64,000 nt of DNA from Eledone cirrhosa. Taxonomy: Eukaryota. The DNA is taken from the NCBI GenBank assembly GCA_964016885.1, contig OZ024749.1:18724001-18788000 (forward strand), written 5' to 3'. Below the pieces are notes generated by a model. That model worked only from the letters and a program-made list of their open reading frames with translations. It was not told where the DNA came from and searched no databases. Positions 18,615-32,241 of this stretch are shown in pieces. Position numbers and translations under genes: made by a program. Position 1 is the stretch's first letter. Every line of letters begins with the position of its first letter.

Positions 18615-18689
18615 TACCTTATGAAGAGAGAAGAAACATTTAGATATAATTAGTAATAAAATGTATCATACCTAAAATGCTCCTAAATA

Positions 18690-18777
18690 CCTCGACTACG
18701 TAGTTTCGTGGCATAAACAAAAACAATATATCATAAAGATATAGAGTCCTTGCGAGGTCTGCCGACTTATCAAGAGG
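18690..18777 (-). ncRNA. Type I HHR, U3-A8, extended stem II
   Basis: CCTC TTGATAA GTcGGCA...TGCCAC GAAA CTACGTAG TC GAGG. Confidence 0.82.
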
Positions 18778-19284
18778 ATACCTCATTTTACTAGTCTCAA
18801 GAACGCGTCTACACGACGTGAGAAAGAATCCCAAAAGGCGGAGGGGGAGATAGTCACGCGATATAACGGTCGAGAAACAGAGCTAAGCCTCTTATAACCC
18901 CGAAGAAAATACCACGGAGGCGGAGGGGGTATTCATATCGAGGCCGCAGAAGAGGTGGTGAAGAAGGCGAGAAGTATGAGTAATGGAAGCCTTCCAGCTG
19001 TCTCCACACTTTAAAGATTGCTCGACCAGAGGGAGTTATTAACAATATATTTAGAAACACACAGATACATGCGGACACACACATATATACATGAATGCAT
19101 CCGCACCCAACTGTCAGTTAAGGGTGCCAACTTCACCGATGTTGCTCAATGAATGACTGGGACAGACCAATTCGGTTGAACTAGACTGAACCAGTATCAG
19201 AGTTAAAAATACCTTATGAAGAGAGAAGAAACATTTAGATATAATTAGTAATAAAATGTATCATACCTAAACTGCTCCTAAATT

Positions 19285-19372
19285 CCTCGACTACGTAGTT
19301 TCGTGGCATAAACAAAAACAATATATCATAAAGATATAGAGTCCTTGCGAGGTCTGCCGACTTATCAAGAGG
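19285..19372 (-). ncRNA. Type I HHR, U3-A8, extended stem II
   Basis: Copy 595 bp from the previous motif. Confidence 0.82.
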
Positions 19373-20689
19373 ATACCTCATTTTACTAGTCTCAAGAACG
19401 CGTCTACACGACGTGAGAAAGAATCCCAAAAGGCGGAGGGGGAGATAGTCACGCGATATAACGGTCGAGAAACAGAGCTAAGCCTCTTATAACCCCGAAG
19501 AAAATACCACGGAGGCGGAGGGGGTATTCATATCGAGGCCGCAGAAGAGGTGGTGAAGAAGGCGAGAAGTATGAGTAATGGAAGCCTTCCAGCTGTCCCC
19601 ACACTTTAAAGATTGCTCGACCAGAGGGAGTTATTAACAATATATTTAGAAACACACAGATACATGCGGACACACACATATATACATGAATGCATCCGCA
19701 CCCAACTGTGAGTTAAGGGTGCCAACTTCACCGATGTTGCTCAATGAATGACTGGGACAGACCAATTCGGTTGAACTAGACTGAACCAGTATCAGAGTTA
19801 AAAATACCTTATATATATATATATATATATATATATACATATATATATACATATATATATTATATATATATGAATACATATATATATATATATATATATA
19901 TACATATATATATTATATATATATGAATACATATATATATATATATATATATACATATATATAAATATATATATATATATACATATATATATATATATAT
20001 ATATATACATATATATATTATATATATATGAATACATATATATATATATATATATATACATATATATAAATATATATATATATATACATATATATATATA
20101 TATATATATATACATATATATATACATATATATATACATATATATATATACATATAAATATACATATATATATATATACATATATATATACATATATATA
20201 TATATATATATATATGAATACATATATATATATATATATATACATATATATAAATATATACATATATATAAATATATACATATATATATACATATATATA
20301 TACATATATATATATATATATATATATATATATATATATATATATATATATATAAATACATATATATATATATATATATATATATATATATATATATATA
20401 TATATATATAAATACATATATATATATATATATATATATATATATATATATATATATATATATAAATACATATATATATATATATATATATATATATATA
20501 TATATATATATATATATATATATATATATATATATATATATATATATATATATATACATATATAAATACATATATATATATATATATATATATATATATA
20601 TATAACTTTGAATAACTTTGAAATGTTTTGGCCAGTATTGGCCCAGGCCATGTCTAACTTAATAGCACCACCTGGCGAAGTCTTTCAAT

Positions 20690-29424: not shown

Positions 29425-29496
29425 TGATATGTGGTGACAGTCGAGTTTGCAATTTTCAACTGTGAAAATTGCAAACTCGACTGTCACCACATATCA

Positions 29497-29535
29497 TGAA
29501 CCTGAAGATTGCGAAAGCATGAAAGTACTTGTTCA
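29497..29535 (+). ncRNA. Minimal type I HHR
   Basis: TGAAC CTGAAGA tTGC gaaa GCAt GAAA GTAC TT GTTCA. Confidence 0.82.
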
Positions 29536-29660
29536 ATTAACACTTAGAATTTAATATTCTATCATACTATTTCATTATAATACCATTATATATATTTTAA
29601 AGGATTGTAAATAAAACGAGTAAATCAGACAAAGGTTGGAATTCCTCTTATTAATATATC

Positions 29661-31767
29661 TATATATATATATATATATATATATATGTATATATATATA
29701 TATATATATATATATGTATATATATATATATATATATATATGTATATATATATATATATATATATATATATGTATATATATATATATATATATATATATG
29801 TATATATATATATATATATATATATATATGTATATATATATATATATATATATATGTATATATATATATATATATATATATGTATATATATATATATATA
29901 TATATATATGTATATATATATATATATATATATATGTATATATATATATATATATATGTATATATATATATATATATATATATATGTATATATATATATA
30001 TATATATATGTATATATATATATATATATATATGTATATATATATATATATATATATATGTATATATATATATATGTATATATATATATATATATGTATA
30101 TATATATATATATATATATATGTATATATATATATATATATATATATATGTATATATATATATATATATATATATATATATATATATATATATATATGTA
30201 TGTATATATGTATATATATATATATATATATATACATATATATATATGTATATATGTATATATATATATATATATGTATATATATATATATATATATATA
30301 TATGTATATATATATATATATATATATATATATATGTATATATATATATATATATATATGTATATATATATATATATATAATATATATATATGTATATAT
30401 ATATATATGTATATATATATATATATATATGTATATATACATATATATATATATATATATATGTATATATATATGTATATTATATATGTATATATATATA
30501 TATATATATATATATATATATATGTATATATATATATATATATGTATATATATATATATATATATATATATATGTATATATATATATATATATATATATA
30601 TATGTATATATATATATATATATATATATATATATATATATATTTATGTATATATATATATATATATATATTTATGTATATATATATATATATATATATT
30701 TATGTATATATATATATATATATATATATTTATGTATATATATATATATATATATATATATATATATATATATATATATATATTTATGTATATATATATA
30801 TATATATATATATATATGTATATATATATATATATATATGTATATATATATATATATATATATGTATATATATATATATATATATGTATATATATATATA
30901 TATATATATATATATATATATATATATATGTATATATATATATATATACATATATACATAAATATATGTATATATATATATATATATATATATATATATA
31001 TACATATATACATAAATATATGTATATATATATATATATATATATATATATGTATATATATATGTATATATATATATATATATGTATATATATATATATA
31101 TATATATATATGTATATAATATATATATATATATATATATATATATATATATGTATATATATATATATATATATGTATATATATATATATATATATATGT
31201 ATATATATGTATATATATATATATATATATATATATATATATGTATATACATATATATATATAATATATATATATATAAATATATATATATATATATGTA
31301 TATATATGTATATATGTATATATATATATATATATATATATATATATTATATATATATGTAATATATATATATATGTATATATATATATATATATATATA
31401 TATATATGTATATATATATATATATATATATATATATAAATATGTATATATATATATATATATATATATATATATATATATGTATATATATATATATATG
31501 TATATATATATATATATATATATGTATATATATATATATATATATATAATGTATATATATATATATGTATACATATATATATATATATATACATATACAT
31601 ATATATATATATATATATATATATATATATATATATATATACATATATATATATATATAATATATATATACATATATATATATATATATATATATATATA
31701 TATATATATATATATATATATATACATATATATATATATATATATCTACATATATATATATATACAT
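29661..31767. repeat. (TA)n array, G-interrupted switching to C near 31570
   Basis: Direct reading. Confidence 0.98.
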
Positions 31768-32241
31768 TATGAAGAGAGAAGAAACATTTAGATATAATTA
31801 GTAATAAAATGTATCATACCTAAACTGTTCCTAAATTCCTCGACAACGTAGTTTCGTGGCATAAACAAAAACAATATATCAAAGATATAGAGTCCTTGCG
31901 AGGTCTGCCGACTTATCAAGAGGATACCTCATTTTACTAGTCTCAAGAACGCGTCTACACGACGTGAGAAAGAATCCCAAAAGGCGGAGGGGGAGATAGT
32001 CACGCGATATAACGGTCGAGAAACAGAGCTAAGCCTCTTATAACCACGAAGAAAATACCACGGAGGCGGAGGGGGTATTCATATCGAGGCCGTAGAAGAG
32101 GTAGTGAAGAAGGCGAGAAGTATGAGTAATGGAAGCTTTCCAGTTGTCCCCACACTTCAAAGATTGCTCGACCAGAGGGAGTTATTAATATATTTAGAAA
32201 CACACAGATACATGCGGACACACACATATATACATGAATGC
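31768..32241 (-). mobile_element. Partial 595-bp family unit; HHR at 31838-31923 with a stem III mutation
   Basis: Matches 18619-19098. Confidence 0.85.

Follow-up and report, generated by a model that had tools for sequence, protein, structure and literature searches.

Two described systems come closest to the repeat analysed here, the non-LTR retrozymes of animals and the EN+ PLEs. For the animal retrozymes, a mobilising retrotransposon and the use of RNA circles as templates have been proposed, though not yet demonstrated, in the parts of the two sources drawn on here (PMC7229834; bioRxiv 10.64898/2026.07.22.740005, a preprint that sampled 35 species). PLE insertions are partial tandems truncated at the 5' end, which frequently carry an inverted 5' copy together with a tail of 30-40 bp on one end only (PMC8557442, PMC3846280). 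Among them, RWK, DKT, and CxCX5C motifs define the Hydra clade, whose members insert in (TA)n (PMC8557442). The purified anole PLE protein (PAc) cuts and extends both target strands and uses two start sites inside the RNA, the tail being the interval between them; in vitro, ribozyme cleavage is dispensable for such insertion (PMC11167929). Hammerheads with U3-A8 cores are already known from PLEs, where they are poor cutters (PMC4209133), and eight of nine predicted Xenopus retrozyme dimers were without cleavage (bioRxiv 10.64898/2026.07.22.740005).

Here, we analyse a 595-base repeat present in the window, a 64,000-nucleotide stretch of Eledone cirrhosa DNA. We propose, with a probability of about 0.68, that its unit is a non-coding, ribozyme-bearing non-LTR retrozyme with a PLE integration footprint, likely copied in trans by a Penelope-type RT-EN, most likely of the Hydra clade, and probably from a circular monomer RNA. 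The unit is 591-595 bp long, and we number it from the predicted hammerhead cut. Three young copies, 95.5-99.3% identical, lie in the window. The first is a dimer (18614..19812, minus strand being the ribozyme sense) of 2.02 head-to-tail units with a period of 595, running from unit position 72 to 80, with 4 differences between its two units and its 3' end at what we call site A (18614). The second (25238..26057, plus strand) covers unit positions 17 to 245, or 1.38 units with a period of 593, and has its 3' end at a different place, site B (26057), while the third (31762..32241, minus strand) covers positions 191 to 80, or 0.82 unit, and again has its 3' end at site A (31762). These positions and sizes, together with the occurrence of both orientations, had been given correctly to within a few bases by an earlier, sequence-only reading. 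All three copies adjoin (TA)n tracts: the target tract on the 3' side of the dimer occupies 16548..18613, and further tracts are found at 19813-20604, at 26058-26184, and on both flanks of the third copy. As the flanks are (TA)n, target-site duplications are illegible in these copies. The window holds at least three retrozyme-type families.

The repeat is present as thousands of copies in TA microsatellites. In the 3.0 Gb genome, a 23-nt motif spanning the ribozyme cut is matched exactly 7,458 times and its reversed control 0 times, a count far above chance, and site A is fused to TA repeats at 1,971 places. An older sister family, also non-coding, has units of 585-591 bp that are about 84% identical to the window unit and share the same two 3' ends. 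Unit-length cyclic contigs with a depth of about 8 occur in sequencing runs under two other organism labels (X4 and X6); we rejected them as evidence for circles or horizontal transfer, since collapsed low-level DNA from contamination, diet, or a relative fits equally.

Each unit carries a type I hammerhead motif, as judged from inspection of motif and stems; it combines a U3/A8 core with a 5-bp stem I, a stem II region of 58-60 nt, and a palindromic stem III. Stem II is a bulged 6-bp helix lengthened by a long hairpin. The U3-A8 hammerhead with a stem II region of about 60 nt that the sequence-only reading had described is thus found in every unit. The intact copy in the dimer lies at 19284..19373 on the minus strand, with its U3/A8 core at 19368-19362 and a cut predicted to follow 19289; the dimer's second hammerhead (18689..18778, minus) is predicted to cut after 18694 and has its last stem I pair mismatched. 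Those of the second and third copies lie at 25730..25819 (plus, predicted cut after 25814) and at 31837..31924 (minus, predicted cut after 31842, with a mismatch in stem III). An Rfam scan of the unit gave no hammerhead family at E<=10, its matches being microsatellite-driven miRNA noise only; the ribozyme assignment hence comes from the motif and its stems and is a predicted one.

We mapped a first set of 101 insertions, taking 50 in order of position along contig C1 and a further 51 from lists of best hits, with overlapping loci and 3 segmental duplicates dropped. Apart from the few exceptions counted below, their 3' ends fall only at site A, 80 nt past the cut, or at site B, 244-245 nt past it, and then pass into (TA)n; TA-rich DNA directly follows 146 of 157 3' ends. 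Direct insertions number 45, and every one has its 3' end either at A (73-88; n=26) or at B (240-253; n=19). The other 56 are inverted, every one head-to-head, with tail-to-tail inversion seen in none of the 101. Forty-seven of these pair one A end with one B end, two are A+A, one is B+B, and six have an end elsewhere, so that the A+B combination accounts for 47 of the 50 with both ends at A or B (p 4e-11). A second, independent set, chosen by the A end and covering 61 of 70 further listed places (one locus being a duplicated pair), behaves in the same way: 36 of the 61 are inverted, with 34 A+B, 0 A+A, and 2 other. The 5' ends are scattered over the entire unit and represent truncations.

This anatomy, with 5' truncation, partial tandems, head-to-head inversion (56/101 and 36/61), and a tail on one end only, is that of EN+ PLEs. 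The A+B rule and the one-ended tail together correspond to the tail signature of Penelope, in which reverse transcription has two start sites. By analogy with PAc, we infer that sites A and B are two PLE-type start sites and that the 164-165-nt tail is the stretch between them; in the dimer it would occupy 19044..19208 on the minus strand, between site A (19209) and site B (19044), as placed by end mapping and read after PMC11167929. These results also alter the earlier picture of permuted ends, which had been offered as a sign of reverse transcription around a circular RNA. The 5' ends do vary, and to that extent the description stands, but two of the three window copies end at site A and the third at site B. 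The mapping of copy end points that the sequence-only reading had proposed thus yields two fixed 3' sites and scattered 5' truncation of the PLE kind in place of free permutation. With such ends, the end points alone are no demonstration of a circle, and the argument drawn from them falls away. Its description of the repeat as retrozyme-like, on the other hand, and the view that the repeat is non-autonomous and not simply a pLTR, are supported by the genome-wide motif count and the mapped insertions, and we consider it very probable that the unit is non-autonomous and PLE-mobilised.

Two other accounts of the tandem units can be weighed against these data. The first, already raised by the sequence-only reading, is that the unit is simply the pLTR, the truncated 3' end, of an autonomous PLE. 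The insertion anatomy matches PLE ends, and 21 of 57 Xenopus retrozyme families match PLE termini (bioRxiv 10.64898/2026.07.22.740005). Against this, no copy among those mapped (101 and 61 insertions and 29 sister loci) runs in sense into a PLE frame, and nearby PLE protein matches are separate or head-to-head; as searches at the DNA level cover only some 40 top-scoring candidates, a rare version linked to an ORF may lie elsewhere in the genome. Neither an in-sense RT-EN continuation nor a period equal to element length was found: the period stays at 585-595 bp through up to 4.9 units, against 3323 bp in an autonomous PLE. The unit has no coding remnant, its longest stop-free stretch being 87 codons with no PLE match, and it is the pLTR of none of the elements compared. 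A short-stem-II variant of the hammerhead, used as a pattern for a partner, had 5 matches, and the 3 sites listed are copies of the family itself. The pLTR account is largely refuted and, in our estimate, highly improbable. The second account is satellite-like amplification at the DNA level, in which unequal exchange and TA slippage build the tandems. The long, unstable TA tracts in the flanks are favourable to it, as are the segmental duplicates at a few loci (L159, L049-L051, L331). It gives no account of the two fixed 3' ends, the scattered 5' truncations, or the A+B rule at dispersed sites, and 53 of 61 variants within insertions are singletons, which argues for arrays made in one step. 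We regard it as refuted as the main mechanism, with a very low chance of being the explanation, although it may act locally.

If the repeat is a PLE-mobilised retrozyme, the next issue is the form of the RNA that is copied. Both arms of inverted insertions share a haplotype: over 46 insertions, discordance affects 31 of 580 polymorphic sites where 219.5 would be expected. The units within an insertion likewise agree (224 of 3242 discordant against 1225 expected). Among arms picked by their A end, 84 of 91 run across the cut site and 1 starts exactly on it (30 of 30 crossing in one set, which mostly overlaps the first 101 insertions, and 54 of 61 in the second). Since nearly all these arms cross the cut, cut linear monomers are not the usual template. 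In 39 cases, 12 of them spanning 3-8 units, a rare allele is present in every unit that covers its position, as against 5 that are partly shared and 190 confined to a single unit; in one insertion (L150), five rare alleles recur in all 7-8 units of both arms. Such fixation across units, taken with read-through of the cut site, favours a monomer circle as the template. The allele pattern agrees with repeated reading of one monomer, a model put forward for the circles of retrozymes and PLEs (PMC7229834, PMC4209133), and we judge it probable that a putative circle is the usual template.

The alternative is that PLE-driven integration proceeds from an uncut, linear, multimeric read-through transcript, the hammerhead being a weak or protein-assisted relic and a circle being unneeded. 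Several observations speak for it, beginning with the poor cutting of PLE-type hammerheads (PMC4209133) and the dispensability of cleavage in vitro (PMC11167929) noted above. Most arms span less than 2 units, the longest reaching 4.9, and the allele pattern is also compatible with linear multimers from freshly homogenised donors. Two-arm insertions contain 61 variant sites, of which 53 are the singletons already mentioned, 6 coincide with a single alignment gap, and the other 2 are genuine unit-specific alleles, each present once in both arms. The latter (L026 and L037) need a template of at least two units or gene conversion. A further point in its favour is that 5' ends are about twofold enriched at unit positions 368-416 (39 of 254; p 1e-4, post hoc, the interval having been picked afterwards), downstream of a TATA-like box at 351-358, and this excess could mark the start of linear transcripts. 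We rejected by eye a Pol III A-box/B-box at 96-116, where the boxes abut. Linear donors, however, yield arrays that are equal or shorter and should transmit unit-specific mutations, whereas the 12 rare-allele fixations with at least 3 units stand against only 2 unit-specific cases common to both arms. Nearest-neighbour identity has no power to tell the templates apart (divergence of 0.63% within insertions, 0.45% to the nearest other insertion, and a median of 2.0% to others). The conservation of the hammerhead core, given next, also weighs against a linear template, which we consider unlikely.

Comparison of the window family with its sister (28 of 30 sister loci used) points to constraint at the RNA level. 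In the hammerhead core and inner stems a single position of 53 is changed, whereas 97 of 595 columns differ overall, a contrast that is partly biased, as the 3' half of the ribozyme served to find the sister query. There is 1 difference in the 26 positions of site A and there are 2 in the 20 of site B; elsewhere, the divergence is 17-24% in most regions and 9% in one. Of the changed paired positions, 37 of 53 are still paired (null 25.3 +/- 2.4; 0 of 2000 shuffles reach this value). The circular fold of the unit has a z of -4.96 in the sense orientation and of -0.89 in the antisense one, relative to shuffles (n=40), and the ribozyme strand is thus predicted to be highly self-paired. In an 18-row alignment of the hammerhead, 94.8% of cells pair; the changes are one-sided, none being compensated on the opposite strand of the stem, and pairing does not surpass that in the shuffle control. 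This alignment shows conservation, not covariation.

As to the autonomous partner, the best candidate in the window is a Hydra-type PLE (11248..15940, minus strand; period 3323) that adjoins the dimer at about 3 kb and has an intact open frame of 979 codons at 11476-14415. This frame contains RWK, DKT, a CxCX5C linker, CxxC and CxH, plus GIY-YIG at the C terminus, and the element lies in a (TA)n target, by a reading of motifs against the definition in PMC8557442; Pfam and NCBIfam scans gave no match for the protein. Both this element and another autonomous PLE of the window, a Neptune-like one (frame 5729-7894), bear U3-A8 hammerhead cores like that of the repeat. The presence of Hydra- and Neptune-type PLEs would in itself suggest an animal host. 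The Hydra PLE family has 3' ends 60 and 224 nt past its own cut, one per inverted arm, and one of each end is present in all 4 inverted copies seen whole (among 30 loci) as well as in the window copy. Its spacing of 164 nt is common to it and the 595 family. Elsewhere the spacing is about 89 nt (a second Hydra family), 64 nt (the Neptune-like family), and 70 nt (a 469-bp retrozyme). As a sign of partnership this is suggestive; it is one match among 3 autonomous families mapped in a genome that holds many more Hydra families. In the window, the 469-bp retrozyme, with its tail of about 70 nt, is fused to a Hydra PLE whose tail measures 89 nt, and such unequal tails leave the spacing match unvalidated as a marker of partners. 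The unit has no sequence similarity to the Hydra PLE tail (z 0.5) or to the 556-bp and 469-bp families, and a fold shared with that tail or either family is not evident by eye. Comparison with the PLEs of the window gave no pLTR homologue, and matches from the genome at large are swamped by copies of the family. The nearest RT frame (20690-23821) was rejected as a linked ORF: it belongs to an AP-endonuclease LINE, with 800 bp of TA between it and the dimer.

Inspection of 19 non-TA junctions found two chimeras. In one, a sister-family arm is joined head-to-head to a Hydra-type endonuclease fragment (L262); in the other, a 595-family arm is fused to the Neptune-like family at the 3' end of the latter, where the motif is similar to site B (L123). 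The second chimera would suit a partner that is the Neptune-like PLE, or another (TA)n-targeting PLE, instead of the Hydra family with the 164-nt tail. The Neptune-like family also combines a U3/A8 hammerhead and (TA)n targeting with an outer end that reads like site B, and the autonomous families mapped are only 3. Its two ends, however, are about 64 nt apart, not 164, and a lone chimera may come from deletion in a TA tract between neighbouring insertions. We see this alternative as possible, at somewhat longer odds than an even chance, and lean slightly towards a Hydra-clade partner.

Taking these findings together, the following course can be envisaged. Read-through transcripts of tandem copies would cut themselves at their hammerheads, likely as dimers, and the released monomer would be ligated into a circle of about 595 nt. 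A PLE protein may then nick (TA)n DNA and start reverse transcription inside the RNA at A or B, as the ends suggest. Synthesis then passes the cut site for a variable length of up to 4.9 units, as the arms in the genome show, and gives 5'-truncated tandems. Finally, the A+B inverted arms of one haplotype suggest that a single RNA serves for priming at both target strands, each strand using its own site, probably through a protein dimer. One possibility is that a dimer of a Hydra-clade protein grips a single retrozyme RNA circle at a pair of start sites separated by 164 nt, primes both strands, and rolls round the circle from each, and that the retrozyme attracts this protein by imitating, without sequence homology, how the tail of the PLE itself is spaced and shaped. 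We put this specific model forward tentatively and hold it to be rather doubtful as a whole; if true, it would make the autonomous partner of an animal retrozyme directly identifiable and provide a genomic read-out of the PLE integration complex. The family offers thousands of young insertions with a strict rule of two start sites and the signature of a single template, and close by lies an open-frame Hydra PLE with equal spacing. The rule, the signature, and the adjacent PLE open the questions of mobiliser and circle to the published PAc-type assay.

The class, the U3-A8 core, the size range, and the PLE link are already published (PMC4209133, bioRxiv 10.64898/2026.07.22.740005), and the value of the family lies in a testable mechanism, not in its sequence, which is of an ordinary class. 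In the literature covered, which is incomplete, we found no report of a two-end rule or matched tail for a retrozyme, and the preprint's supplements may list comparable families.

Among known systems, plant LTR retrozymes have circles of similar size (600-800 nt, that of the present repeat being putative), but they carry a type III hammerhead in LTRs, a PBS and PPT, and 4-bp TSDs, and are Gypsy-driven (per PMC7229834 and the preprint); the type I topology and head-to-tail units rule out that identity here. Non-autonomous Chlamys elements such as MRC1 are likewise non-autonomous PLE derivatives with multicopy head-to-tail insertions, but in the part of PMC8557442 used here they are in general similar to the autonomous partner in their 3' ends and are mostly without hammerheads, whereas the present unit has a hammerhead and no detected partner similarity. 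With the PLE hammerhead variants (Cervera and de la Pena 2014, PMC4209133) it shares the U3-A8 core, the short stem I, the bulged helix II, and a small palindromic helix III predicted to act as a dimer; it differs in about 40 nt of further extension in stem II and in placing the motif in a non-coding tandem unit. Like EN+ PLEs of the Hydra clade (Craig et al. 2021, PMC8557442; start sites of PAc in Frangieh et al. 2024, PMC11167929; Arkhipova et al. 2013, PMC3846280), it shows 5' truncation, partial tandems, a head-to-head inverted 5' copy, a tail on one end, (TA)n targets, and a hammerhead just upstream of the 3' ends. Unlike them it has no ORF, its tail is 164-165 nt against 30-40 bp (and equal to that of one Hydra family here), and its short period permits several full rounds per insertion. 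With the non-LTR retrozymes of animals (Cervera and de la Pena 2020, PMC7229834; Li, Clavereau and Pollet 2026, bioRxiv 10.64898/2026.07.22.740005) it has in common non-coding tandem units, head-to-tail and in many dispersed copies, with one type I hammerhead each, a self-paired sense strand, copies in the thousands, and co-occurring PLEs proposed as mobilisers. The sequence-only reading had called the unit longer than typical, which holds against the 150-450 bp first described (PMC7229834) but not against the 51-972 bp of the preprint. On these grounds the unit falls within the sequence-level definition of a non-LTR retrozyme. It differs in its U3/A8 core with a long stem II extension and in being known here from genome sequence, mostly as dispersed insertions of 0.1-5 units with PLE-type inversions and two fixed 3' ends. 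We therefore suggest that the 595 family is a new non-LTR retrozyme (non-autonomous PLE) family with an unusually clear integration footprint.

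The 556-bp dimer on the minus strand at 27989-29145, which carries a C3/G8 hammerhead-like motif, is a third retrozyme-like family. The stem II region of this motif is long here too, stem III is an 8-nt palindrome, and the dimer ends about 73 nt past the cut, within TA repeats; its unit shows no similarity to that of the 595 family, the noncoding 591-595-bp tandem repeat with a U3/A8 type I hammerhead. A hammerhead core of the C3/G8 type is likewise present in the 469-bp dimer, which lies on the plus strand and is joined head-to-head, without an intervening TA, to a truncated Hydra-type Penelope-like element (PLE) on the minus strand (together 48584-51161). 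Copies of the 469-bp family end at +225-230 and +299 from the predicted cut, and it builds arms exceeding 7 units, with tail-out inversions.

In the 595 unit, a TATA-like box at positions 351-358 (for example, window 25568-25579) is followed by a zone, 368-416, in which 5' ends occur at about twice the expected number. This excess could reflect either transcription start or stalling of the reverse transcriptase (RT) at the hairpin at 334-401. Near-identical unit sequence is also indexed in runs X4-X18, sequencing runs under 15 other organism labels, at a depth that is mostly low in the runs inspected; run X5 has unit variants of its own. Relatives, contamination or transfer may account for these occurrences.

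TA microsatellite makes up about one-third of the window, and very long (TA)n tracts of 2-11 kb lie on either side of insertions (16548-18613, 29654-40989, and 56538-58979). Two young, RT-bearing LINE-like families, the first with an AP endonuclease (20614-23821, 35140-36186, 43298-44943, and 52579-54867) and the second at 9096-11075 and 40998-42760, likewise sit inside (TA)n tracts.

Autonomous PLEs are found in the window as well. A young, full-length Hydra-type element (11248-15940) combines a 979-codon open frame with a pLTR and an inverted arm and has at least 2,500 candidate places genome-wide. The Neptune-like element at 4375-7894 possesses a DKG motif and a CX2-5CxxC linker, as judged by eye, together with a 3' region of 1.3 kb, a U3/A8 hammerhead, and ends at +76 and +140. 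At mapped loci elsewhere in the genome, a 595-family arm is fused head-to-head to a Neptune-like 3' end (L123:1766-2932), and an arm of the older, roughly 84% identical sister family is fused in the same manner to a Hydra-type 3' fragment (L262:1064-2985). In the window, two near-perfect palindromes (29225-29644 and 56236-56526) consist of short PLE-type ends set head-to-head, with hammerhead-like cores.
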